A DNA stretch of 30,107 nt, taken from positions 1 through 30,107 of the IMG/VR virus record IMGVR_UViG_2698536535_000005. One strand, 5' to 3'. The DNA comes from a virus (lineage: Duplodnaviria > Heunggongvirae > Uroviricota > Caudoviricetes). Under the pieces are notes generated by a model. The model made no database searches. It saw only the letters and a list, made by a program, of their open reading frames with translations, and had not been told where the DNA came from. The position numbers were made by a program, and so were the translations under genes. How positions within the stretch are numbered: position 1 is the stretch's first letter; the number at the start of each line of letters is the position of its first letter. This document shows positions 2,826 to 30,050 of this stretch, in pieces.

Positions 2826-2953
2826 CTGGTTGCGTATACAGTAGTAGACTTTGAGCGACGAAAGAAAAGGCTGTGTCTAGGGTCGCTCCCGAAAATCCGT
2901 ACACCTCGACGGACTGGTACAGCCACTACAGTAGAGGACGCTGAGGTGTGCGT

Positions 2954-3751: not shown

Positions 3752-3766
3752 CGCACCATACCGCAT

Positions 3767-3807
3767 ACCCTGAGGGTGATTTACTGTTACCCTGAGGGTA
3801 TTTTTTT
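3767..3807 (+). terminator. putative intrinsic terminator formed by two ACCCTGAGGGT boxes followed by a T7 run
   Basis: Boxes at 3767..3777 and 3789..3799 can pair as an 11-bp stem with one central mismatch and an 11-nt loop, followed by TTTTTTT (3801..3807); sits 16 nt after the stop of the 2954..3751 gene. Confidence 0.45.
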
Positions 3808-3978: not shown

Positions 3979-4176
3979 ATGTCAAATACGCTTATTCGTT
4001 TAACAGAAGTTCAGCGTAGAACTGGATATAGCAAGGCATGGATTTATCGCCTTATGGGGCAAGGTAAATTTCCTGCATCAGTTAAAATTGGCTCGCGAGC
4101 TATTGCTTTCGTTGAGAGTGAAATTGACGAGTGGATTAATCAGCGTATTGCGGAATCACGCGGAACAGCTACCTGA
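3979..4176 (+). CDS. alpA: AlpA-family prophage regulatory protein (excisionase-like HTH regulator)
   Basis: 65-aa protein LIRLTEVQRRTGYSKAWIYRLMGQGKFPASVKIGSRAIAFVESEIDEWINQR, the characteristic AlpA sequence pattern; GAGG Shine-Dalgarno upstream. Confidence 0.85.
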   Translation: MSNTLIRLTEVQRRTGYSKAWIYRLMGQGKFPASVKIGSRAIAFVESEIDEWINQRIAESRGTAT

Positions 4177-4253
4177 TTAAATGGCTACGGGGCTATTTCC
4201 CCCAGCTATCCACCAGCAAATAAAAGTAACTTAATTCGATAGCAGGAGTTTTT

Positions 4254-5054
4254 ATGAAATTTCCAAAAACGCCCGTACAGGGGCGGGGCTTCGTTCGGCC
4301 TGAAAACCAGAATCTGCAAAATTTCGGCGAAATTATCCCGATTATTTCCGGCGTTATTGGCGGGAGTGAAACCACTATTGTTAGCGCCAGAGCGTTACAT
4401 AAGGCGTTAGGTGTAGGGCGCGTTTTCCGTTCGTGGATCAAGGGGCGCATTGAAGAATACGGGTTCACGGAAGGCGTGGATTATGAGGTTGTTGAATATT
4501 TGAGCCGACCCGATCCGGTGAGCGCAAAATCTCGCCAGCAAACCGCTCTTGAGTACATCATCACAGTGAACATGGCGAAAGAACTGGCGATGGTCGAACG
4601 TACCGAACAGGGCCGCGCCGTTCGCCAGTACTTTATCAAATGCGAGGAGGAGCTACACAAGGTTGCGCCTGTTCGTTCCGCAGCGTTACGCCGGGAACTG
4701 AAAGCCCGTATCACAGTTGCCAGCTACTTTAAGCCAATGTGTGCCGCGCTGGAGGCGTACCGGGCTGAACTGGGTAAAAACACACTCCAGCACCACTACA
4801 CCACGGAAGCGAACATGCTGGCGCGTATCGTACTGGGTGGCATGACTGCAAAACAGTGGGCACTGGCGAACGGCATTACAGGCGAACCACGCGACCACAT
4901 GAGCACGTTGCAGCTTGAGCACCTTTCTTACCTTGAGCAGAGCAATATCACGCTGATTGAGTTAGGCCAGGACTACCACCAGCGGAAGGCTGAATTAATT
5001 CGTCTTTCGCAGCGTTGGTTAGCCCGTCGCATGGAGGAAAACAGCCATGTGTAA
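4254..5054 (+). CDS. phage antirepressor-like protein (AntA/AntB-type N-terminal domain, KilAC-like C-terminal region)
   Basis: 266-aa ORF with AGGAG Shine-Dalgarno; N-terminal segment TIVSARALHKALGVGRVFRSWIKGRIEEYGFTEGVDYEV resembles the AntA/AntB antirepressor domain; assignment by eye only. Confidence 0.5.
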   Translation: MKFPKTPVQGRGFVRPENQNLQNFGEIIPIISGVIGGSETTIVSARALHKALGVGRVFRSWIKGRIEEYGFTEGVDYEVVEYLSRPDPVSAKSRQQTALEYIITVNMAKELAMVERTEQGRAVRQYFIKCEEELHKVAPVRSAALRRELKARITVASYFKPMCAALEAYRAELGKNTLQHHYTTEANMLARIVLGGMTAKQWALANGITGEPRDHMSTLQLEHLSYLEQSNITLIELGQDYHQRKAELIRLSQRWLARRMEENSHV

Positions 5055-5771
5055 CGCTCTGACCGTTACAAAAAGAGAAAGCGCCCCGTTGCCGGAGCGC
5101 CTTTGTGAACGAATAGCCTACTGCGCCATATTGCTTACTGTCTACGAGGCAGATTATAGCGTTGTGGTCGCACAGAGTGAAGGCGCTGATCACCGTTACT
5201 ACAGCACGCCAGAAATGCAGAATATTTTGCTGCAAAATGTCGTTGGTCACACTGTCCGGAAAGCAAAAAATTTTGCTGGTGGCGCGACTGATGCGATTTT
5301 GTCAGGTCGCCAGGTGCTGATCAATCTGATGTCTGATTTCGTTCTGGATAAAACAAAGGCGACCGCAGAGGGCCGCCAGTGGGAAAGCTACATACTTGAA
5401 CGCATCGCCAACAATGCCAGATTTGCGGCTGGTGGGCAATGTGTCAGCTTTGCACCAATGACTCTATGTTTAACTGAGGGTCATTATGGTGAATATGCTG
5501 GCTTGCTGGTGGGCTATTCCTGCTCTTTAACATTGCCATGCCGCGATGTTTTCCAGGTATGCGACCCCATTTTTGTGCGCCTGTACTCTTTAAGGAATTT
5601 CTCAAGGATAAACGCACAGGGCGCGAATCTGTTTGACTCATGCTCGTACGCTATCTTTCTGCGCTGTCTTTTCCGTGCCGGTGATGGTGTATTGGTTGAT
5701 TCTTTGTTGGTCATGGCGCAGCCCTGTAAAACGATGCACCGTAGTTCCTCACACCACGGCGCTGGTGATGG

Positions 5772-5951
5772 TTACTCCTGTTCTTTGGCCTTGCGGCGCT
5801 GGCGGTATTCAACTTCTCGCTTTAATGCTGCTGTTACAAACTGCCCTGTACTTTCACCAGGCATTTTTACCGCCTCAACATTGTTCATAACTTCATGCGG
5901 AACCCTTGCCGCAACTGTTTGTGATTTTGCGTTTACTGCTTTTGTCGCCAT
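5772..5951 (-). CDS. ribbon-helix-helix (Arc/MetJ/CopG-like) DNA-binding protein, putative repressor
   Basis: 59-aa minus-strand ORF (below the ORF-track cutoff) MATKAVNAKSQTVAARVPHEVMNNVEAVKMPGESTGQFVTAALKREVEYRQRRKAKEQE; beta-strand/helix/G-x-S/T loop/helix pattern typical of RHH proteins; AAGGGG Shine-Dalgarno 8 nt upstream; palindromic boxes in its promoter region. Confidence 0.5.
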   Translation of the reverse strand: MATKAVNAKSQTVAARVPHEVMNNVEAVKMPGESTGQFVTAALKREVEYRQRRKAKEQE

Positions 5952-5999
5952 GTTGTGTACCCCTTACAAAAAACAAATGCAGTATGCAGGAAAAAAAAT

Positions 6000-6051
6000 A
6001 AGTGTTCAACACTTGACGTGTTTAACACCTAGGCTTAAATTGGTGTTCAAC
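6000..6051. promoter_or_regulatory. three palindromic GTGTTCAACAC-type operator boxes in a divergent promoter region
   Basis: GTGTTCAACAC at 6000..6010, GTGTTTAACAC at 6016..6026, GTGTTCAACAC at 6041..6051; each is a GTGTT/AACAC inverted repeat; located between the minus-strand RHH gene and the rightward early operon. Confidence 0.45.
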
Positions 6052-6150
6052 ACCTTGTTGATGCAAGGTGCAGAAACGACAACGCCCCGCAGTGGTGGCA
6101 CACATGCAGGGCGTCTAACCACCAACGATAGCAAGAGTATCGAGGTAGCT

Positions 6151-6354
6151 ATGAGAAATCATACCACACACCCGCAAGGGCGGGACTCGCACAACCTGAA
6201 TAAATACATCTGGCGTTTTATCGCCCTGAGCACGGCACAACCGCGCGTAATTCACATCGAGGCCACCAGCGAACAGGAAGCACGCCAGCAATCTCCTGAT
6301 GGCTGCGTGATGGTATTCGCAGCCCGTATTCGCCAGGAGGTGGAACATGTGTAA
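6151..6354 (+). CDS. small hypothetical protein (likely first gene of the rightward early operon)
   Basis: Internal ATG of the 435-aa track ORF, preceded by GAGGT Shine-Dalgarno; ends in the EVEHV-stop coupling motif shared with neighbouring genes. Confidence 0.35.
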   Translation: MRNHTTHPQGRDSHNLNKYIWRFIALSTAQPRVIHIEATSEQEARQQSPDGCVMVFAARIRQEVEHV

Positions 6355-6571
6355 TGCAACATGGCCTGATGCAGCGGTAGACGCTATCAAAACGCTGATG
6401 GATTCACTTATTGAGATTTCTGCTATCGCTGGTGTGGCGCATAAACACGCAGCCAGAGAATCAGAATGCATCTCCCATTATTTAGCATTTGTGCAGCTAA
6501 AAGCCGATCAGGCACTGGATAAGGCCGGAAAAATTATCATGGCTGATGTGCAGGAGGTGCACCATGCATAA
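6347..6571 (+). CDS. small hypothetical protein, early operon
   Basis: AGGAGG Shine-Dalgarno; start overlaps the upstream stop in the CATGTGTAA coupling motif. Confidence 0.5.
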   Translation: MCNATWPDAAVDAIKTLMDSLIEISAIAGVAHKHAARESECISHYLAFVQLKADQALDKAGKIIMADVQEVHHA

Positions 6572-6929
6572 CCTGTCAATTTCTGACCTTAACAGCATTC
6601 AGTTTGACGAGAAATTTACCGGGCAGTTGCTGGTCAATGTGGAGAACGGGCGCATAGTGCGTAATTACCACCTGCCGGATGGTGCAATTGCCGGAAGCGT
6701 TGAAGCATTGCTGGAACTGGCGGAACGTGCGCGACTGATTAAGCCGTCAACGAGCCATCACGATGATGATCTGCATTTTACCGGGCGTATGGTGAGTCAC
6801 TACGAAAACGGCGTTGAAGTATCCCGCGAACGGCTGCGTGATGATTGCTGTTTCGGCACACTGCCGGAATTTATCGAGTTGCTGACCAGTTGCGGTTATC
6901 AGGTCATTCAGGGGGGTAAACATGCGTGA
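6564..6929 (+). CDS. hypothetical protein, early operon
   Basis: Start moved to the ATG preceded by CAGGAGGTG (track ORF begins at 6546); overlaps neighbours by start/stop coupling. Confidence 0.5.
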   Translation: MHNLSISDLNSIQFDEKFTGQLLVNVENGRIVRNYHLPDGAIAGSVEALLELAERARLIKPSTSHHDDDLHFTGRMVSHYENGVEVSRERLRDDCCFGTLPEFIELLTSCGYQVIQGGKHA

Positions 6930-7155
6930 TGATCGTTTTAATTCCCTGAAACGGGAATTTGATGGCGCACCGGAAGATGCAGCGGGCGCATTGTTGAGCG
7001 TTGCTGACATGATGAAAGCTGCATATTTTCTTATCAATACCAGTGGCTACAAGTCAGAGGGTGAAATGATTCTTAGTATTGCGTCGGACTATGCGGAATA
7101 TGTGGCAGAGACGCGTTACAGAAGAAAATTCACGGAGGATGTAAGCCATGCATAA
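6922..7155 (+). CDS. small hypothetical protein, early operon
   Basis: GGGGGG Shine-Dalgarno; overlapping stop/start with both neighbours. Confidence 0.45.
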   Translation: MRDDRFNSLKREFDGAPEDAAGALLSVADMMKAAYFLINTSGYKSEGEMILSIASDYAEYVAETRYRRKFTEDVSHA

Positions 7156-7348
7156 TCATGAAGCGCATGTACCCGTAGTGCTTAATGTGCCAGATGATTT
7201 CACCGGACGCGTACTGGTTTACCTGGATAAAGGGAAAGTGAAATCACAATGCCGACTGAAAAGTAATGAGATTGTTGGTTCTCCTGAATTTTTTTCTGAA
7301 CTTTGTATTCGTGCGGAAATAAAACCGGAACTGCTGACAGGAAAATAA
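7148..7348 (+). CDS. small hypothetical protein, early operon
   Basis: GGAGGA Shine-Dalgarno; overlapping start/stop with the previous gene. Confidence 0.45.
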   Translation: MHNHEAHVPVVLNVPDDFTGRVLVYLDKGKVKSQCRLKSNEIVGSPEFFSELCIRAEIKPELLTGK

Positions 7349-7352
7349 AACC

Positions 7353-7643
7353 ATGAAAAAGAAAAATTCTGGCTTTACTGCCAGCGGCCTCTCTCGGCCT
7401 GAAATCCGCCCCGGTGATATTTCCCGGGACACCAGACGCGGGGGACGGGTGGTTATTCGTCACGTTACGCCAGGCAATATCACCTACCGCCGTGAGGCTT
7501 ACGAATATGACTGCGTAATGCCGCGCCGTCAGTTTGATCGTGATTTTATTCTGGTGGAAAACAAACAACAGGCAGTGGCGAGACGTGCAGCCACGAATAT
7601 TAAAAAAATCCGGGCAATGTTGGTTGCGGGAGGTAAGAAGTGA
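7353..7643 (+). CDS. hypothetical basic protein, early operon
   Basis: 96-aa ORF beginning 5 nt after the previous stop; its stop overlaps the GTG start of the primase gene. Confidence 0.5.
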   Translation: MKKKNSGFTASGLSRPEIRPGDISRDTRRGGRVVIRHVTPGNITYRREAYEYDCVMPRRQFDRDFILVENKQQAVARRAATNIKKIRAMLVAGGKK

Positions 7644-9445
7644 AAAACGCACCGAGTCTAAAATATCAGCCGAAGGATAAATTCACTGAGGTAATCATTT
7701 TTGCCGGGACGGATGCTTACGCCCATGCTCAACACTGGATTGAAAGTGAAGGACGAAAACACGGCGATAACGTGCCTCCTGTTTACCTGGGGCCAAAGCA
7801 ACTGGCAGACCTGGCGAATATCCGCATTATTGACGAGAAACGCCGTTTTGCGCGTGTCTATATCGCGGGGGAGATAGAGCCAATCCAGATCAATACTATC
7901 GCTGAAAAGCTGGCGCTGGCTGGCGTACAGGAGGCGAAATTATACAAAGGTATCACCGACCAGGAACCGGAGAACTGGCGCGACTACCTGCAACGGATCC
8001 GCGAACAGGCTGAGCACGGGGAAGTTTCAGTGATGAAATTAGCTACAAAAAATAGTGGTCTACCCAAGCCTGCATTAAATCAGATGGGAGCCAGCCAGAG
8101 AGGGGAAGTGTTACTTGAACATTATGGAGGAGCACTGGCGATAAATGATGATTCTGATGTAGTTCACCATTACAACGGAATTGTTTGGGAGCCTGTATCT
8201 GATAAGGAACTCCAGCGGTCTATGGCGAAGATTTTTATTGATGCCGAAATTAGTTATTCGCAAAACGCCATTAAATTTGCCGTAGAGACAATGAAATTGA
8301 GTCTACCTGTTATGGGGGGAGCGGACAGAAATCTTATTGGGTTCAGTAACGGTGTTTTTGATATCAGGACAGGAAATTTTCGGGAACACAACAAAAATGA
8401 CTGGTTGTTAAATGCCAGTGAATTACCGTTCAGCCCGCCAGAAGAGGGGGAAACGCTGGCAACACATGCGCCGAATTTCTGGAAGTGGTTGCGTCGTTCG
8501 GTGGCGGATAATGCTCGTAAAGCGGATCGCGTACTGGCGGCATTATTCATGGTACTGGCGAACCGGTACGACTGGCAGTTATTCCTTGAGGTAACGGGGC
8601 CGGGCGGAAGCGGTAAAAGTGTGATGGCGGAGATTTGTACCATGCTGGCGGGTAAGGCCAACACAGTATCGGCAAGCATGAAGGCTCTGGAAGACGCAAG
8701 GGAACGCGCGTTAGTAGTTGGCTTTTCGCTGATTATCATGCCGGATATGACTCGCTACGCTGGCGATGGTGCAGGAATTAAGGCAATTACTGGCGGCGAC
8801 AAGGTGGCAATTGATCCGAAACATAAAGCCCCCTACTCCACACGTATTCCGGCAGTAGTGCTTGCGGTAAACAATAACGCCATGTCATTCAGTGACCGAA
8901 GCGGGGGGATCTCGCGTCGTAGGGTGATATTTAATTTCTCTGAGGTCGTACCGGAGAACGAACGCGATCCCATGCTGGCGGAAAAGATAGAAGGCGAACT
9001 GGCGGTAGTGATTCGCCATTTGCTAACACGATTTACCGACCAGGACGAAGCTAAAAGACTACTTTATGAGCAGCAAAAATCAGAAGAAGCGCTGTTGATA
9101 AAGCGCGAAGGTGATTCACTGGTGGACTTTTGCGGCTATCTGATGTCGTTGGTTAAATGTGAAGGAATGATGGTGGGCAATGCGGAAATAGTGCCATTTA
9201 GCCCGAGGCGATACCTGTATCATGCTTATTTAGCCTATATGTCAGCGCATGGCCTGGGAAAACCAGTATCACTGACACGCTTTGGTACTGATATGCCAGG
9301 AGCTATGGCGGAATACGGAAAGGAGTATAAGCGGGCTAAATGCACTAAAGGCCCGGATAAAGGGCGAGTGATAACAAATGTTCTGTTAGATGATGATGCT
9401 GATGGCTGGTTGCCAGCAGCTACAGGGATTAACGACAGAACATAA
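7640..9445 (+). CDS. P4-family phage/plasmid primase-helicase (C-terminal P-loop NTPase domain)
   Basis: 601-aa ORF, GTG start after GGGAGG; Walker A VTGPGGSGKS and downstream Walker-B-like hydrophobic-DM stretch; overall resemblance to P4 alpha C-terminal / pri-rep proteins of satellites; iteron array immediately downstream. Confidence 0.75.
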   Translation: MKNAPSLKYQPKDKFTEVIIFAGTDAYAHAQHWIESEGRKHGDNVPPVYLGPKQLADLANIRIIDEKRRFARVYIAGEIEPIQINTIAEKLALAGVQEAKLYKGITDQEPENWRDYLQRIREQAEHGEVSVMKLATKNSGLPKPALNQMGASQRGEVLLEHYGGALAINDDSDVVHHYNGIVWEPVSDKELQRSMAKIFIDAEISYSQNAIKFAVETMKLSLPVMGGADRNLIGFSNGVFDIRTGNFREHNKNDWLLNASELPFSPPEEGETLATHAPNFWKWLRRSVADNARKADRVLAALFMVLANRYDWQLFLEVTGPGGSGKSVMAEICTMLAGKANTVSASMKALEDARERALVVGFSLIIMPDMTRYAGDGAGIKAITGGDKVAIDPKHKAPYSTRIPAVVLAVNNNAMSFSDRSGGISRRRVIFNFSEVVPENERDPMLAEKIEGELAVVIRHLLTRFTDQDEAKRLLYEQQKSEEALLIKREGDSLVDFCGYLMSLVKCEGMMVGNAEIVPFSPRRYLYHAYLAYMSAHGLGKPVSLTRFGTDMPGAMAEYGKEYKRAKCTKGPDKGRVITNVLLDDDADGWLPAATGINDRT

Positions 9446-9816: not shown

Positions 9817-10359
9817 ATGGGGCAAAGCATGACTAAGCTGACCATTAACAGAAAACCAAAAGGTATTTACGGCACGCCACAGAAAACGACGCAGGCGGCA
9901 CAGGAGCAGGATAAAACCACATCGGCGCATAAAGTGATGCCCGGTAACCAGAAAGCGCAGCAGAAGCCTACAGGGGCGACACCGTGGCGGCATATGACCA
10001 AACGCCAGCGCAAAAACCGCAGGCGCGTTAACCGCCTCACTGAGTTGTGGCCTGACTTATTCAGCCGGGAAGCACTGAAGCCGCTTAAGGTGGGGATATT
10101 CGACGACCTGATGCAGGATCTCGCCGTCAGGGGGCTGGCATTCGGGCCAGGGGCATTGCGTGCGACGCTGGCATCTTATGCGCAGTGTCCGCGCTATTAC
10201 CGCGCCTTAATGGCTGGTGGGGTACGCTACGACCTGAAAGGCCAGCCGTGCGGCGAGGTGACACCACAGGAACAACAGGACGCAGAAACGCGGCTGGTGG
10301 CGCTGAATGAGAAGCGCAAACGCCAGCGCCGGGCAGCAAAGGAGACAATAGGCGCATGA
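9817..10359 (+). CDS. FinO/ProQ-family RNA-binding protein
   Basis: Central region ALKPLKVGIFDDLMQDL...LRATLASYAQCPRYYRALMAGGVRYDLKGQPCGEVTPQE aligns by eye with the E. coli ProQ N-terminal FinO domain (PLKIGIF, LR.AL..Y, RY, R.DL.G.PCGE). Confidence 0.6.
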   Translation: MGQSMTKLTINRKPKGIYGTPQKTTQAAQEQDKTTSAHKVMPGNQKAQQKPTGATPWRHMTKRQRKNRRRVNRLTELWPDLFSREALKPLKVGIFDDLMQDLAVRGLAFGPGALRATLASYAQCPRYYRALMAGGVRYDLKGQPCGEVTPQEQQDAETRLVALNEKRKRQRRAAKETIGA

Positions 10360-10643
10360 TTCACGACAGCAAAGCGGAAGCACTGGAAGCGCGTGGTCTG
10401 TACCGGAGAGCGGCGGCGCGGTGGGCTGAGGTCATCATGCTGGCGAATGATGACAAGGCACGGGAACAGGCGGCAAAACGTCGCGCGGAATGTATCCACA
10501 AGGCAGCATGCCCACCAGCAAGGCAGGATAATTTCGGGGAGATGCGCGAAACCATCAGCCGGGCACATGCCGGGATGGGATTACATCAGCCCAATGGTGA
10601 GGCATTCAGGAAATACCAAAAAAAGAACAATTGTAGTCAGTAA
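10356..10643 (+). CDS. PerC-like small transcriptional regulator (tentative)
   Basis: 95-aa ORF with AAGGAG Shine-Dalgarno; N-terminus MIHDSKAEALEARGLYRRAAARWAEV resembles the PerC/Pch family N-terminal pattern as I recall it. Confidence 0.4.
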   Translation: MIHDSKAEALEARGLYRRAAARWAEVIMLANDDKAREQAAKRRAECIHKAACPPARQDNFGEMRETISRAHAGMGLHQPNGEAFRKYQKKNNCSQ

Positions 10644-14432: not shown

Positions 14433-15122
14433 ATGAACAAATCACCTACTGAGATAATTAATATGCTAAGCGATAAGTTCAATAGTAACTTTCGTGAATG
14501 GCAGGGCATACAAGATAAAAAATTAGATAAAGTAATTATCTCAATTTTCACTCTTAACACGATTGCTGAAATTTTGAATAAAAAGAAAACATCAGTTCAT
14601 CATGATGTTTGTATTAAAATTTTTAGTGAGATTATTGCTGATACGTCATCTTCTTTATATCTTTCTGCCTGTGCCATAGATAAACCAGCTAATATTGTTC
14701 TAAGGAGAGTTTTGGAACTAGGTGTCGCATCTATTTATCTTTGGGATATGCCTCATGTTGTATATTCTTGGAAAAATCATGATGAAGACTTAAGTTTCAG
14801 TGATATGTTGAAGCATATAACAAATCAAGGCTATATAGACTACTTCACAGAAAATGAGAAGATAGGAGGGAAAGTATGTGTTATTGATATGAGAAGAGCA
14901 CAGAAAATTTATGGACAATTAAGTGATATCGTTCATGGAAAAATAACCTCATTTGAAACTGATTTGCCTAATAAGTTCACTTTTGAAAGTGAAGATTGGG
15001 AGAGGTTCATAGGTCTGGCTGAGGTTGTTTTGGGTATGATAATTAATTCCAATATTGTTCGTCATAAGATAAGAAAAGAAGTGCTATCTTCATTTCCTAA
15101 ATCTAGTGAGGTAGTTTTATAA
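14433..15122 (+). CDS. hypothetical protein, component A of candidate two-gene system
   Basis: 229-aa ORF, strongly AT-rich; stop overlaps the start of the downstream ATPase gene (TAATG); no recognisable catalytic motif. Confidence 0.7.
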   Translation: MNKSPTEIINMLSDKFNSNFREWQGIQDKKLDKVIISIFTLNTIAEILNKKKTSVHHDVCIKIFSEIIADTSSSLYLSACAIDKPANIVLRRVLELGVASIYLWDMPHVVYSWKNHDEDLSFSDMLKHITNQGYIDYFTENEKIGGKVCVIDMRRAQKIYGQLSDIVHGKITSFETDLPNKFTFESEDWERFIGLAEVVLGMIINSNIVRHKIRKEVLSSFPKSSEVVL

Positions 15123-16852
15123 TGTCTATGTTAGACACTGAGTTATTACATGCAGCACGTACCGAAGATCTTGAGTTGAAACAGGTCAAACAACTGGCTG
15201 TTCTTGGTGAGTTTGAAAAAGATGTTGTAGCAAAACTAAAAATAGCGGGCTCTCATCTGATTCAGGGTGCCAGAGGAATTGGAAAGTCTATGCTTCTAAG
15301 AGCGGCAGAAGCTGAATTAGATAGTGATTTTCCTGTTAAAAAGATTGTGGGGGTATATGTTAATTTCAAAACCAGTACTTTGCTGGAAGGGGTTAAAGCT
15401 GACAATAAAAATGCATTTCAGATATGGGTAAGCGCTAAGTTACTACAAGCTTTGTACGAAAAGTTGATATTTTTAGATGTCATTCGTGACAATAATAGCA
15501 GTGATCCATTTCAAAGAATTTTTGGGATTAAAACTATAACTGGAATGAAAGATGCTCTACAATCTAAAATTCATCTGCTTCAAAGGTTATCAAGAGATCC
15601 TTCTTCAGATAAATTGTTGAATGAAATTGGAGAGGATTTTTTAGATAAGGTTAATGATATAAGTTATGTAAATGACATCATCAAGGAGATAATTCAAGAA
15701 TACCAACTTAATAGAATTGTTTTTTTATTTGATGAGGCTGCTCATACCTTTATACCAGAACAGCAGGAAATATTCTTCGAAATATTTAAATTGCTTCATG
15801 GCGGTAAAATTGCAGTTAAGGCGGCTGTATATCCGTCAATTACATCGTATGGTAAAAATTTTGAAGTTGGTCAAGATGCCATGATGATAAACCTCGGAGG
15901 ATACGAAACTGGAAATATTGGGCGGGAACGAACACGACGTTTATATCGTGATCTATTAGATAAACGGGTCACACAAGGAGCAGCAAAAAAGAGAATATTG
16001 GCTAAAGGTGATTTGCTAGATCAATGTATTCATCTTTCATCCGGAAACCCTAGAGCATTTCTCCATTTATTTAATAAAGTATATGAGAAAGGTTATACTG
16101 AAAGAGATCTTTTAACTTGCACTCAGGATTATGTCAATCAAGAATTATTACCTTATCATTTAGGGCTTTCAAAACGATTACCTAAGTATTCTCACCATGT
16201 TCGCATTGGACTTGATATTCTTAGGGAGTGTATTATCCCTGAGCTTAGATTGAAAAATAACAGAGAGAAAAAGACTCAAACCCAATCTGCTTTTTTTGTT
16301 CTTCCTCCCGTTATTTCTCCAAATCTTAGATTGTCTCTAGATTTGCTTTGTTATTCTGGTGTTCTTTCCAAGCAAGGGTCCGTGAAGATGTCTAATCGAA
16401 AATCGGGTCAGCGCTACATGGTTAATTTATCATTACTTTTCACTGAAAAAGCATTCGTATCTAATAAGTTCGGGGAGATAATAACACTATTATCTCTCGC
16501 TGATTATAAAGAATTTGGCGCAGCAGATTCTGAATTAGAGCGTTTTTTAGAAAAATTGAAAGAATCAGCTGATGAGTGTCAAACTTGTTCCGCTGAGTTA
16601 CCTGGAGATGCGAAGTTTTGTCCTAAGTGTGGGACACCTGTACCAACAAGGTCAATTGTAGGACAACTTCTTGATGATCCGGTTAGTTGCTTGTCAATTA
16701 GTAACGCAATATGCGACCGAATAAAAGAAACCTATCCTAAAGTGGGTGATATCGTTCACTGTTCGAGGGATGATCTGAAAAAAATACCGTACATTAAAAA
16801 TGTTAGGTCAAAAATAATCAAGAACGCAGCGGATGAATATATCTCAGGCTAA
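15122..16852 (+). CDS. Orc1/Cdc6-like AAA+ ATPase with C-terminal zinc ribbon and HhH (RNA polymerase alpha-CTD-like) domain, component B
   Basis: 576-aa ORF; Walker A GARGIGKS, Walker B IVFLFDEAAH, sensor-2-like SGNPRAF; C-terminal CQTC-x11-CPKC zinc ribbon; last ~60 aa resemble the RpoA alpha-CTD; GAGG Shine-Dalgarno; terminator downstream. Confidence 0.8.
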   Translation: MSMLDTELLHAARTEDLELKQVKQLAVLGEFEKDVVAKLKIAGSHLIQGARGIGKSMLLRAAEAELDSDFPVKKIVGVYVNFKTSTLLEGVKADNKNAFQIWVSAKLLQALYEKLIFLDVIRDNNSSDPFQRIFGIKTITGMKDALQSKIHLLQRLSRDPSSDKLLNEIGEDFLDKVNDISYVNDIIKEIIQEYQLNRIVFLFDEAAHTFIPEQQEIFFEIFKLLHGGKIAVKAAVYPSITSYGKNFEVGQDAMMINLGGYETGNIGRERTRRLYRDLLDKRVTQGAAKKRILAKGDLLDQCIHLSSGNPRAFLHLFNKVYEKGYTERDLLTCTQDYVNQELLPYHLGLSKRLPKYSHHVRIGLDILRECIIPELRLKNNREKKTQTQSAFFVLPPVISPNLRLSLDLLCYSGVLSKQGSVKMSNRKSGQRYMVNLSLLFTEKAFVSNKFGEIITLLSLADYKEFGAADSELERFLEKLKESADECQTCSAELPGDAKFCPKCGTPVPTRSIVGQLLDDPVSCLSISNAICDRIKETYPKVGDIVHCSRDDLKKIPYIKNVRSKIIKNAADEYISG

Positions 16853-24991: not shown

Positions 24992-26020
24992 ATGATTATC
25001 GGAAATGAAGTGGTTGATCTTGCTCCACTGTTCGAATTAAACGACTCACGCAATTACCTACTGTCTACTCTGGATTTTACTGATCCTGTGCCTGTAGAAA
25101 GTCACAAAGTGGCTGTTTCCCAGCTTATCGAGAGCAATGAATCTCTGTTCAACCATCCTACAAGCCGTTTTAGCTCTGAGCATAACGTTACTAAGCGTGA
25201 GAACGGGGAAGAATATCTTATTGAAATCCCGTACTTTTTAAGGGAAGACCTGATCAAACCGCAGGACGTGCAAGGCAAACGCAAAGCCGGAAGCTCTATT
25301 GAAGAAACACTGCCGGATCTGTATGCGGAATATATCGCTAAACACAATGTTGCATTCCAGCGCACTAAAGAAAGCATCCTCGCGGCTTCTCTGTTCTCTG
25401 GCAAGACACACACCCCGAAAACTGACGATGTTCTGATCGATTACAGCACTCTGTTCGGTGTGTCTCCAATGACTGCAACCGTTGACGCATCCAGCACCAA
25501 CACAATGACCGTATTCAAGCAATTTGATCAGATGCATACGGATATGATTGCTAAGGCACAAAGCCAGGCTGCAACCATTGAGCGTGTTGTTGTGTTCTGT
25601 AAACCTGCGGCATTCAACGCTATTCGTTACAGCGTTGGCATGGTTAATGCGTTCCAGTATGCAAGCCCTGTAGACGATGCAAACGTGGTGTTTAATGTGC
25701 GTTCTCTGCTGCCTGGTGTAACTACTTTCACCATTCCAGGAACTAACATTGACCTGATCAAAGTGACTGATCCGCTGCTGCTGGCACATATGACCGCTGA
25801 CGCTGTAGCTATTCCTAAACTTGCTAAGGGGGCAGGTGTTTACCAAGCTATTTTTGGTGCGCCTTCCAGTTCATTCGATCTGCTGTCTCAAGGCGCTAAA
25901 GAGTATTACAGCTATGCTTTCGAATCGAATCGCGGCGACGCAGTGCACGTAGTGACCGAGAATAGCTCGCTTGTGGTTAACCACGGTGTTGGCTTCTCTG
26001 TGCAGATCACAGTAGCGTAA
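24992..26020 (+). CDS. hypothetical protein, possible major capsid-like protein (speculative)
   Basis: 342-aa ORF with strong AAGGAA Shine-Dalgarno; size and position after a ~120-aa gene resemble the lambda gpD/gpE arrangement; similarity to gpE not demonstrable by eye. Confidence 0.55.
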   Translation: MIIGNEVVDLAPLFELNDSRNYLLSTLDFTDPVPVESHKVAVSQLIESNESLFNHPTSRFSSEHNVTKRENGEEYLIEIPYFLREDLIKPQDVQGKRKAGSSIEETLPDLYAEYIAKHNVAFQRTKESILAASLFSGKTHTPKTDDVLIDYSTLFGVSPMTATVDASSTNTMTVFKQFDQMHTDMIAKAQSQAATIERVVVFCKPAAFNAIRYSVGMVNAFQYASPVDDANVVFNVRSLLPGVTTFTIPGTNIDLIKVTDPLLLAHMTADAVAIPKLAKGAGVYQAIFGAPSSSFDLLSQGAKEYYSYAFESNRGDAVHVVTENSSLVVNHGVGFSVQITVA

Positions 26021-28293: not shown

Positions 28294-28971
28294 ATGGCAA
28301 TGGGTCCGTTAACCATTGGTCGCCCGACTGAGGCGAAAATCAACAGCACAAGCAACGATAGCAACGGTAGAACAACTAAAGGGGGTAACGGCTTTGCGAT
28401 CATTACCTCTAACCTCGGCAGTGGTGCAAATGCTGCTTACAATGACTACCAGGCATTATCATTTGATAGCGTGGAATCGACGAAAATTAGCCGAAATGCA
28501 GACGTTACAAGCTATGCCGTCGAATCAGGATCAGAAGTTAGTGATCATGTTCAAATACGGAATAACAAGTTCACATTACAGGGGCGTATCTCTGAAACAG
28601 TATTGAAGCTCAATCCCGATATGATTAAGAATGCGGGAATTAACGGCAATAGACGTATGCTTATGCTTGAATACCTAAATCAGTTGATGGACAGTCGCCA
28701 ACCTTTCCTACTTGTCACTGAGTTAAAAAATTATGACAACGTTGTGTTAGTTGGCATGTCTTACGAAGAAGAAGCAAGCGAAAGCCTATTGTTTACTCTT
28801 GATTTTGAGCAAATCCGTCTTGTCTCTAAAGCAACTACAAGCGCAATTGCGGTAAAAACAGCACCAAATAAATCTGTAGGAGGTCAGGTTAAAATGCAGG
28901 TAAATACAACAGAACAGAAAAATCAAAAAAGCCCAGGGCAAGACGTTGTAACGCCAGTATTTAAACAATAG
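28294..28971 (+). CDS. hypothetical protein
   Basis: 225-aa ORF with AAGGA Shine-Dalgarno; convergent with the downstream integrase. Confidence 0.55.
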   Translation: MAMGPLTIGRPTEAKINSTSNDSNGRTTKGGNGFAIITSNLGSGANAAYNDYQALSFDSVESTKISRNADVTSYAVESGSEVSDHVQIRNNKFTLQGRISETVLKLNPDMIKNAGINGNRRMLMLEYLNQLMDSRQPFLLVTELKNYDNVVLVGMSYEEEASESLLFTLDFEQIRLVSKATTSAIAVKTAPNKSVGGQVKMQVNTTEQKNQKSPGQDVVTPVFKQ

Positions 28972-29051: not shown

Positions 29052-30050
29052 CTATAGCGTTGTTTTACGCCTTAAATTTGATTTTTTATTGATTGATAAG
29101 CCTTTCTCTATTTCAGGGTAGCGTAAAAGCTCAATATATTTTTTAAGCTCTACTGGAGAAGCTGCATTCTTGCTATATGTGCGGAATGTTTCTGTATTGC
29201 CGCGCTGATGGCCCAAAATTAAAGCTATGCGGTCCTCTGGAATTTGATTTCGATCAAGAAGCTGTGCTACTCCGTGTCTCAGAGAATGAAACACTTTCCT
29301 TTCTGTTCCCTTTTCCCCTAAAGCCTTTCGTTTAGCTCTTGTAAATCGTTGTGTATGCCACGTAGAGCGTTTACCGTCAGCACGTTCTGTAATGCTGGCG
29401 TGATAGAACAAAAAGCCATTGTGAGGCTTTTCACGAAGAGATAACACCAATGGAGTGATAAGGCTATGCACAGGCACAAGACGTGCCGCAGCTTTCGTTT
29501 TTCCCTGTGTGATTTCAAAACACAGCACACCTTCGATCTCTTTCACATCGTCTATTGTGAGACTTGCTATCTCATTGATCCGCATACCTGTATATAAACC
29601 GATAAGACACAAAGCCGTCATTTCTTTGTTTTCTGCTGAATTACCGGAAAATACTTGCAACACCTGCAATAGCTCTTTGTTAGAAAATGCCTCGTAGCTC
29701 TCTCTACTTTGTGCCACATCAAGCCTATGCCCTCGCCAGGGGGAGAGCGCCCTTTCTGGCGCATCGTGGTAACGTGATGAAGCTAATTCCCATAGCTGGG
29801 CCATTGGGCTGATATAATTTGCAATTGATTGTTGTGAAAGAGTTTTTTGCATATGTTCAATCCAGCCTGTAACAGTGGTGCGGCTTACATCTTGCAATGC
29901 AATATCAGGCTTTTTACGGTAGGAGAGAAACATCTCTACCGCTTTTCTTGCCTTAGCTAAAGTGGCTGGCTTCTTCTTCGTGCTGTTAATTGTCAGGTAG
30001 ATTTCAAGAATTTTAAGCAATGACGGACACGAAGACGCTGTATCTTGCAT
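29052..30050 (-). CDS. tyrosine recombinase / phage integrase (different family from the thrW-proximal integrase)
   Basis: 332-aa minus-strand ORF; C-terminal catalytic region with HSLRHGVAQLL (H-x-x-R) and a downstream tyrosine; lacks the long P4-type N-terminal arm-binding domain. Confidence 0.85.
   Translation of the reverse strand: MQDTASSCPSLLKILEIYLTINSTKKKPATLAKARKAVEMFLSYRKKPDIALQDVSRTTVTGWIEHMQKTLSQQSIANYISPMAQLWELASSRYHDAPERALSPWRGHRLDVAQSRESYEAFSNKELLQVLQVFSGNSAENKEMTALCLIGLYTGMRINEIASLTIDDVKEIEGVLCFEITQGKTKAAARLVPVHSLITPLVLSLREKPHNGFLFYHASITERADGKRSTWHTQRFTRAKRKALGEKGTERKVFHSLRHGVAQLLDRNQIPEDRIALILGHQRGNTETFRTYSKNAASPVELKKYIELLRYPEIEKGLSINKKSNLRRKTTL

Follow-up and report, generated by a model that had tools for sequence, protein, structure and literature searches.

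The stretch of viral DNA considered here, IMG/VR virus record IMGVR_UViG_2698536535_000005 (30,107 nt; hereafter the window), carries a plus-strand open reading frame (ORF) of 435 codons at 5047-6354, whose reading frame we call frame F. Gene content and layout identify the window as a Gram-negative phage-inducible chromosomal island (PICI), a satellite of Escherichia coli phages. Our conclusion from the comparative data is that the continuity of frame F appears to be under selection while its sequence does not, and that a chance chimera is strongly disfavoured as an explanation of the ORF. We further consider it reasonably probable that this region serves the island as its junction of immunity and induction, in which a read-through ORF of the eta/kil type, known from satellite P4, holds an antisense ribbon-helix-helix (RHH) repressor cassette in place of the CI RNA.

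The long ORF begins at an ATG that overlaps the stop codon of the preceding gene, antA, within ATGTGTAA (5047-5054), and the Shine-Dalgarno (SD) sequence GGAGGA stands in front of it at 5033-5038, as had been noticed in a first-pass annotation made from the sequence alone; all the features that it listed were recovered where it had placed them. From stop to stop the frame is open over 5023-6354. On its way it crosses two minus-strand terminators, runs antisense through two small genes, orf66 (5514-5714) and ylcI (5772-5951), passes the putative operators, the predicted rightward promoter PR and a structured leader, and enters the icd-like gene (6151-6354) in frame, ending in a TAA that overlaps the ATG of the next gene. 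Codon usage over 5047-5513 is best in frame F, at a level similar to that of icd, which tells against the first-pass reading of the ORF as a chimera. The Cys/Ser-rich middle on which that reading drew is nevertheless present: residues 157-302, the part antisense to the two minus-strand genes, contain 18% Cys+Ser, one Lys and no Glu, a composition of antisense type.

Frame F is open over 430-536 codons in three E. coli islands (our loci L002-L004), one of which carries another ylcI allele, 101 aa long. Among 25 distant loci it is open in about 18. For a sample blind to the frame, 80 IMG/VR loci were collected by similarity to the 67-aa Icd protein alone, without regard to frame F. The open run of the icd frame upstream of icd has a median length of 293 codons in these loci and reaches 100 codons in 78 of the 80, compared with medians of 1 and 7 codons in the other two frames. 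The 80 loci represent at least 38 clusters of upstream sequence with different antisense cassettes, and every minus-strand gene in them lies in one phase relative to frame F. It is important to note that many of the sampled loci are kin, so that raw probabilities overstate their independence; the numbers of distinct codon states, lengths and cassettes are the safer measures. From the IMG/VR loci we use run-length statistics only, and a codon-context count on their minus-strand ORFs is not taken as evidence, since it would be circular, these ORFs having been chosen inside the open span.

The same preference is seen in the stretch between ylcI and icd. In 23 distinct loci this stretch contains 19 stop triplets in the phase of frame F and 128 and 130 in the other two phases, and the numbers of stop-free loci are 18, 0 and 0, respectively. 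Distances from repressor to icd are almost always of the form 3n+1 (106, 136, 139, 178, 187, 190, 193, 196, 199 and 205 nt).

Within the antisense genes, the constraint falls on synonymous sites. Frame F is not the codon-aligned antisense frame; the third codon positions of the two strands coincide, and antisense stops in frame F arise only from the codon contexts NNT-CAN or NNY-TAN. Among 28 distinct ylcI alleles, a T-ending codon precedes CAN in none of the 110 codons for which a T-ending synonym exists, while the expected share is 34% as judged from the same amino acids elsewhere in ylcI, or 36% as judged from codons before CAN in the other genes of the island. Single ylcI sites use up to eight different codons, none of them T-ending. 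When synonymous codons are resampled, frame F stays open in 23% of trials for ylcI and 19% for orf66; given these low shares and the lack of codon alignment, we rejected the idea of an ordinary shadow ORF. For the window alone, the probability that the whole of frame F is open by chance, estimated by synonymous resampling together with shuffling of the parts that are not overlapped, is ~1e-7.

The claim that the 435-aa ORF is chimeric does not survive these comparisons: almost every relative, those with different antisense cassettes among them, has the frame open, the opposite-strand synonymous sites are constrained, and length varies in frame. Conservation of the full ORF, named in the first-pass annotation as an observation that would overturn the chimera, holds for the open frame and fails for the protein, as the amino acid sequence of the long ORF is not conserved and its middle is swapped between islands. 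Three loci are instructive in this respect. In L010, L012 and L021 the intergenic length is not 3n+1 and frame F is out of register with icd, yet it remains open through icd and joins the frame of the next gene, as would be expected if translation as such were needed and not one given product. Relative to alpA or ant, the start of the frame is coupled or follows closely (20-100 nt after alpA in other loci), often with a strong SD.

These observations also bear on the possibility that the product of the long ORF is a real multi-domain protein with a sequence that is itself important, such as a long Icd or Bro-network isoform acting in induction or host take-over, with anti-termination secondary or absent. 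We regard this as unlikely. More than half of the product is dictated by the antisense genes, the operators, the promoter and the leader hairpins, and this dictated portion is swapped wholesale among islands that have the same icd. The gene-like codon usage of 5047-5513 would suit such a protein, as would the Bro-N/Ant-like N-terminus with which the frame begins in L004 and L012; the N-terminal part in the window, however, is very narrowly distributed, and the out-of-register frames of L010, L012 and L021, still open into the next gene, speak for translation more than for any one product. Further points on its side are that P4 Eta is counted as a Bro-network gene (PMC10111431) and that versions of the long frame carry the name "Icd-like protein" in some annotations. 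Outside the Icd part, the long ORF has no Pfam or PHROG match. Its N-terminal 104 residues find just 17 matches among 1.8 billion representative proteins, and we rejected them as a conserved domain, since the matches all come from the same E. coli frame save for a few spurious repeat proteins.

Annotation of the long frame varies among genomes. In an E. coli record that is 100% identical, the Prokaryotic Genome Annotation Pipeline (PGAP) calls both minus-strand genes and, as an "Icd-like" gene, 6151-6354, while the 435-aa ORF is not called and 5055-5513 is left empty. Elsewhere PGAP and other pipelines are inconsistent: in some genomes 176-310-aa versions of the long frame are named "host cell division inhibitor Icd-like protein" and sometimes replace the repressor gene, and in others only the 67-aa gene is called (L002, 2619-3551; P0075-P0118). 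The best-conserved piece of the 5' part of the long ORF holds two palindromes, ATTTTGC-T-GCAAAAT (5224-5238) and GCAAAA-AA-TTTTGC (5263-5276); the first is present in 16 fetched loci, and the pair may be a protein-binding site.

The second line of evidence concerns the repressor and its operators. The first-pass annotation had placed three palindromes in the promoter region of the minus-strand RHH gene; they lie at 6002-6053 and are 11 bp long, two being exact copies and the third a central-base variant, so that the three are not identical. Putative operator O1 (GTGTTCAACAC, 6002-6012) abuts the -35 element of PR and overlaps the inferred -35 of a leftward promoter PL, putative O2 (GTGTTTAACAC, 6018-6028), which differs from GTGTTCAACAC in the central base, lies in the PR spacer, and putative O3 (GTGTTCAACAC, 6043-6053) lies over the predicted PR start. 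Centre-to-centre distances are 16 bp from O1 to O2 and 25 bp from O2 to O3. The pattern GTGTTNAACAC has three exact matches, all within 52 bp and none elsewhere in the 30 kb; allowing at most one mismatch, 0.82 matches would be expected over the whole window. PR itself is a predicted sigma-70-like promoter on the + strand (6013-6041; TTGACG, 17-nt spacer, TAAATT; 9/12 in the promoter scan) with a predicted transcription start at ~6048, and TTGAC with TAnnnT is kept at its position in all related loci. PL would occupy 5981-6009 on the minus strand, with a -35 element TTGAAC (6009-6004) inside O1, a 17-nt spacer and a -10 element CATACT (5986-5981); it was read by eye from the sequence and was not called by the automatic promoter scan. 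Relatives have a TATACT element at the place of PL, within ...ACAGTATAC..., overlapping another operator-like site. The position of O1 at the PL -35 suggests that ylcI is autoregulated.

We compared operators and repressors among 27 loci from other Enterobacterales and among E. coli islands with the same icd gene. Across all of these the architecture is kept, and the palindrome and the beta-strand residues of the repressor change together, in about 20 immunity types besides that of the window; the strand residues that vary with the palindrome are 11-15. The window type pairs KSQTVAAR with GTGTTCAACAC. KSKKLEAR goes with GTGGCTGACAC, a pairing that E. coli and Xenorhabdus/Pectobacterium show independently of each other, KSQK(L/V)QAR with GTGGAGTCCAC, KSQKMSAR with CTGGGTGCCAG, KSAKKNIR with TGTGCGCACA and KSQSVTAR with GTGTAAGACAC; further pairs exist beyond these six. 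Other loci have unrelated Arc-like repressors at this position, and each of these comes with repeats of its own over the same promoter. Since palindromes and strand residues co-vary over so many types, the reading of YlcI and the palindromes as a repressor/operator pair, in which YlcI would itself bind the DNA, is well supported. The repressor/operator switch on the rightward operon that had been proposed in the first pass is supported by the overlap of the palindromes with PR and by their co-variation with the repressor.

The 59-aa gene ylcI (5772-5951, minus strand), a predicted RHH repressor gene, has the SD that had been noted for it, AAGGGG (complement of 5960-5965), 8 nt before its start. 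A homology search with its product, proposed as a check in the first-pass annotation, gave a match to the NCBIfam family YlcI_YnfO_N (NF041551; 59.7 bits against a cut-off of 30, E = 2.1e-16, residues 9-50) and another to phrog_949, and the PGAP name is YlcI/YnfO family. The protein has no Pfam match, to RHH families or otherwise, and no relevant match in a profile search of Protein Data Bank sequences. An AlphaFold2 model built with 32 homologues (predicted local distance difference test score, pLDDT, 83) consists of an extended N-terminal segment followed by two helices that are joined by a GES turn, which is the RHH topology of beta strand-helix-helix in ~45 residues. We therefore place YlcI in the RHH (Arc/MetJ/CopG) superfamily by its modelled fold and its context only, as it shows no sequence-level relation to Pfam RHH families or to a solved RHH protein. 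A literature search on YlcI/YnfO/DUF3950, on PICIs with ribbon-helix-helix and on Icd-like with satellites found no functional study of the cassette, and searches of phage databases gave no DNA match to the region and no tblastn match for YlcI.

It might be argued that YlcI does not repress the rightward operon at all but is an RHH protein of an antitoxin-like or partition type, or regulates the helper phage, and that the palindromes serve autoregulation only. O1 does overlap the putative PL -35, and the YlcI and YnfO of K-12 sit in lambdoid late regions; O2 and O3, however, lie inside PR or over its start and not in PL, no toxin-like partner is present (orf66 is small and basic, and its family is variable), and the unrelated Arc-like repressors found at the same position bring their own repeats over the same promoter. 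The layout also resembles that of P22 Mnt, its operator and Pant. We consider this alternative improbable, and retain YlcI as the candidate repressor of PR.

The second gene of the leftward operon, orf66 (5514-5714, minus strand; 66 aa), had been noted as a further small ORF; it belongs to a conserved family (phrog_21027, E = 7.8e-32; a hypothetical protein in PGAP), lies in the same minus frame as ylcI, and carries the conserved motif RFAPCAF.LEKFLKEY. Its homologues in other loci are variable and hold the same position and phase. In the IMG/VR loci (L036-L115) this second gene varies likewise, retaining [RK]FA..(A/D)F.LE.FL and a basic N-terminus, and some loci have three or four small minus-strand genes, always in one phase. 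By the terminator scan, the operon would end at a minus-strand terminator at 5348-5377 (stem 5358-5377, T-run 5348-5357), in a patch conserved in L005, L002 and L004 although the island backgrounds are otherwise unrelated. In frame F this terminator reads as the recurrent peptide "DKTKAT", a motif that recurs at the left end of the frame in many loci with varying stems. We read a GC-rich hairpin with an 11-pair stem and a T-run at 5078-5103 (minus strand), also found by the scan, as a back-up leftward terminator; the patch that holds it, 5070-5126, is 91% identical to L002 and L004, whose flanks are unrelated, and is shared with other island types.

Several smaller features accompany the leftward operon. 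Between ylcI and orf66, a terminator-like hairpin of 10 pairs with the tail ATCGTTTTAC (5736-5762, minus strand) may attenuate orf66 expression. A good minus-strand promoter match (5181-5068; TTCACT, 17-nt spacer, TATAAT, 10/12) is followed ~45 nt on by the strong terminator at 5103-5078, and from the two a small RNA of ~70 nt could arise that is antisense to the beginning of the long ORF; in L002 and L004 the promoter part is not kept. Beyond the stop codon of ylcI, in the interval that separates it from the + strand gene upstream, clusters of short palindromes occur in L021, L025, L027, L032 and the Xenorhabdus loci, examples being CCCTCTTTAAGAGGG, which reads "PSLRG" in the open frame, and TTGTGCGTnACTnnTAGTnACnCACAA; these may be repeated binding sites or RNA hairpins.

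On the rightward side, the gene start that the first pass had placed at 6151 is borne out by the SD GAGG at 6142-6145 and by family matches. The gene at 6151-6354 shares the frame of the long ORF, at whose 3' end it lies, and is the equivalent of P4 kil; its 67-aa product matches the Icd-like family NF033153 (71.7 bits against a cut-off of 25) and phrog_6196 (E = 3e-45), and its stop codon overlaps the ATG of the following gene (6347, ATGTGTAA). A longer Icd starting at the in-frame ATG at 6061 was considered and rejected, because the SD and ATG at 6151 are the conserved start; the ATG at 6061, ~12 nt from where transcription is predicted to start, lacks an SD and is missing in relatives. Between PR and icd lies a leader (6051-6142, + strand) predicted to fold into three hairpins, H1 (6051-6070), H2 (6082-6114) and H3 (6126-6142), with an invariant sequence, TCTAACCAC, at 6114-6122 that loosely resembles a boxA element. 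In an RNAalifold alignment of 23 leaders, 11 of the 15 predicted pairs show compensatory changes, located in H2 and H3; H1 is found in each leader and could not be aligned. H3 adjoins or encloses the icd SD, which in most relatives lies in the loop of the third hairpin. The leader matches no Rfam family.

The nearest known counterpart of this arrangement is found in P4. There, the ORF after vis (an alpA homologue) starts at ATGATGATG, overlapping the vis stop codon, and spans 214 codons; this is eta, with kil nested in it. Residues 161-208 of P4 Eta match NF033153 (E = 1.4e-20, 73.1 bits), and an internal start, AGGAGG with ATGGCT, stands in front of this Icd-like part. Direct similarity by BLASTP between the Icd-like protein of the window and the Eta C-terminus is weak (28% identity, E = 0.086). 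As cited in PMC10111431, Forti et al. (1999) describe Kil as a shortened Eta, full-length Eta as made only from the upstream late promoter and translationally coupled to the alpA homologue, and eta translation as preventing termination of late-promoter transcripts. In the window, the selection for an uninterrupted frame is indirect evidence that translation of the long ORF may likewise prevent termination.

P4 and the window thus share a long ORF coupled to the upstream gene (vis in P4, antA here), a short Icd/Kil gene, preceded by its own SD, that lies in frame within the 3' end of that ORF (a register kept in most relatives), an internal promoter (predicted in the window) and immunity determinant inside the long ORF, and a downstream operon leading to a primase gene. 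They differ in that the P4 immunity element is a same-strand RNA acting by premature termination, whereas the window has an opposite-strand predicted RHH repressor and a second gene with putative DNA operators, and in that an ant gene lies between alpA and the long ORF in the window. Unlike eta, the long ORF of the window must stay open antisense to real genes, which constrains the synonymous sites of those genes. Rfam finds C4 (CI RNA) and isrK (seqA region) inside the eta ORF of P4; the same tool detects neither of them in 20 related loci nor, at a threshold as loose as E <= 5, in the window, and a C4/CI-type antisense RNA upstream of icd was rejected. Lacking an RNA of this type, the region is filed as an eta/kil variant and not as a P4-type immunity system.

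That the 435-aa ORF is an accidental open run of unrelated pieces, with just ylcI, orf66 and icd functional and its continuity meaningless, is very improbable: PGAP leaves the ORF uncalled in the identical record, Pfam and PHROG are silent outside the Icd part, the middle has an antisense-type composition and the N-terminal residues are nearly without matches, but the window-alone probability, the open frame in 78 of 80 blindly sampled loci from at least 38 upstream clusters, the avoidance of antisense-stop contexts in ylcI (0/110), the frame-keeping intergenic indels and the same nested arrangement in P4, where a function is documented, all stand against it.

Other systems resemble parts of the region. 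In the immI region of P22, the RHH repressors Mnt and Arc control Pant. P22 immI and the window have in common a small RHH repressor (predicted here) divergent from the repressed operon, palindromic operators on the promoter and an antirepressor gene nearby. YlcI/YnfO is another sequence family, however, with three 11-bp sites as against a single operator; the operon it would control consists of icd and replication genes rather than ant, and P22 has no overlapping read-through ORF. The immI region of P1/P7, with its c4 RNA, icd and ant, is reportedly the subject of work by Biere, Citron and Schuster in 1992. It shares with the window a small ORF of the Icd family at the head of the operon and an antirepressor in the module, and we count as a further likeness that translation of the icd ORF is reportedly needed in P1/P7 against Rho-dependent polarity downstream. 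Control in P1 is by the c4 antisense RNA, which blocks the icd ribosome-binding site, whereas the window has a predicted DNA-binding repressor, and ant lies downstream in P1 and upstream in the window. Finally, the Stl/Rpr repressors of the Gram-positive PICIs (the Staphylococcus aureus pathogenicity islands, SaPIs) resemble the candidate of the window in being divergent and placed between the integrase side and the replication/packaging operon. Stl proteins are large helix-turn-helix repressors lifted off the DNA by helper-phage proteins; the window candidate is a 59-aa predicted RHH protein encoded antisense in a co-directional ORF. A further likeness is that alleles of the Stl/Rpr master repressors are variable (PMC6092414).

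How the junction might work can be sketched from these parts. In the resting island, a leftward operon running from PL through ylcI and orf66 to the terminator at ~5358-5377 would yield the RHH repressor, and YlcI bound to O1-O3 would shut PR, leaving the operon from icd to the primase gene silent. In Gram-negative PICIs, alpA is induced by helper phages, and AlpA by itself sets off pri-dependent replication (PMC6092414). Once a helper phage turns on alpA, we infer that the alpA-antA transcript runs on from the alpA promoter into the region, where the ATGTGTAA overlap would let ribosomes leaving antA continue in the long ORF. Uninterrupted translation would then proceed over the terminators, the antisense orf66 and ylcI, the operators and the leader, as far as the icd stop codon that overlaps the next start. 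Such translation would act as an anti-terminator, shielding ~1.1 kb of otherwise untranslated and largely antisense RNA from termination, most likely by Rho, and it might in addition ease the passage of RNA polymerase past bound repressor. In this way the replication operon would be expressed from upstream even with PR repressed, and convergent transcription would also reduce ylcI expression. Transcripts from PR would give just the short, 67-aa Icd-like protein.

A number of observations weigh against this scheme. Of the 23 distinct distant loci, 5 have frame F closed by intergenic stops (7 of 25 in a wider scoring; the loci with a closed frame include L005, L011, L014, L016, L018, L020 and L024), and openness is therefore frequent rather than obligatory. 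An obvious SD is missing before the first ATG of the frame in some loci. ynfO of a K-12 lambdoid prophage, intended as a negative control, offered just one informative codon context, which made it uninformative for this purpose, and its antisense frame is also open. As regards Rho, the excess of C over G in the + strand RNA across ylcI is only moderate. The icd gene has its own conserved SD and start codon, so that PR alone could suffice for expression of the operon. Lastly, the presence of the cassette in EcCICFT073, the island of the AlpA experiments, could not be confirmed.

With these reservations, we tentatively propose a more general reading, which we hold to be possible but somewhat less likely than not to be right in full. 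Gram-negative PICIs would have a master repressor in the form of an interchangeable RHH cassette, YlcI-type or Arc-like, with its own operators, lying antisense in a selected, stop-free, eta-like ORF that constrains its synonymous codons and the length of the operator region; the frame would be a translated bridge carrying AlpA-driven transcription past the repressor and silencing the repressor gene by convergent transcription. Were this correct, it would fill the repressor gap left by the founding paper on Gram-negative PICIs (PMC6092414), and island immunity specificity would be modular, a single icd/leader backbone serving many repressor-operator pairs. It would also provide a testable case of selected ORF continuity without selected sequence, with a footprint on the synonymous sites of the opposite strand, and would account for the recurring inconsistency of annotation, in which an "Icd-like protein" of 176-310 aa is called in some genomes and goes uncalled in others. 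Because translation that protects a satellite read-through transcript is known from P4, the proposal is an extension of a known idea and not a new principle.

The setting of the region is that of a Gram-negative PICI, an element recognised by int, alpA and pri in the same orientation at an attachment site, a size of ~10-20 kb and often a capsid gene, a description that the window fits. The island site adjoins proA and tRNA-Thr (1369-1441), and EcCIMP1 likewise occupies the proA site. The gene order is integrase (int, 1611-2825), a hypothetical gene, alpA (3979-4176, + strand; AlpA-family activator, Pfam Phage_AlpA, E = 2.4e-19), antA (4254-5054, + strand; AntA/AntB antirepressor and Bro-network protein, Pfam AntA, E = 2.5e-23), the region studied here, five small co-directional genes and a D5-type primase gene (7640-9445), followed by ProQ/FinO and PerC genes and, farther right, a capsid E gene (24992-26020). 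A rightward unit headed by alpA extends to the primase gene; its gene junctions all overlap, and the terminator scan found no strong + strand terminator from alpA to the primase gene. Positions 4200-7700 are 100% identical to the chromosome of E. coli SCU-316, and sequence related to them is present in 1,612 of 5,426 complete E. coli genomes. In its right half the window departs from SCU-316, where chromosomal genes lie instead.

Just 5' of alpA, two tandem TACCCTGAGGGT(G/A) hairpins lie at 3766-3800 (+ strand), the second followed by TTTTTTT, with a + strand terminator at 3788-3800; these terminator-like hairpins would separate the unit of int and the hypothetical gene from alpA, which would then open a transcription unit of its own. 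Directly 3' of the integrase gene, at 2870-2937 (+ strand), is an int-alpA RNA (Rfam RF02996; 45.5 bits against a gathering score of 35.8), a motif also present in three related IMG/VR loci (L052, 32-99; L053, 284-351; L113, 1118-1184). The cargo or late zone of the island (9817-10643, 15122-16852, 24992-26020, 28294-28971 and 29052-30050) contains ProQ/FinO-like, PerC-like and capsid E genes, a gene for a Dit-like tail protein and a second integrase gene on the minus strand, as well as an ORC/CDC6-like AAA protein with a zinc ribbon that is possibly a defence gene.

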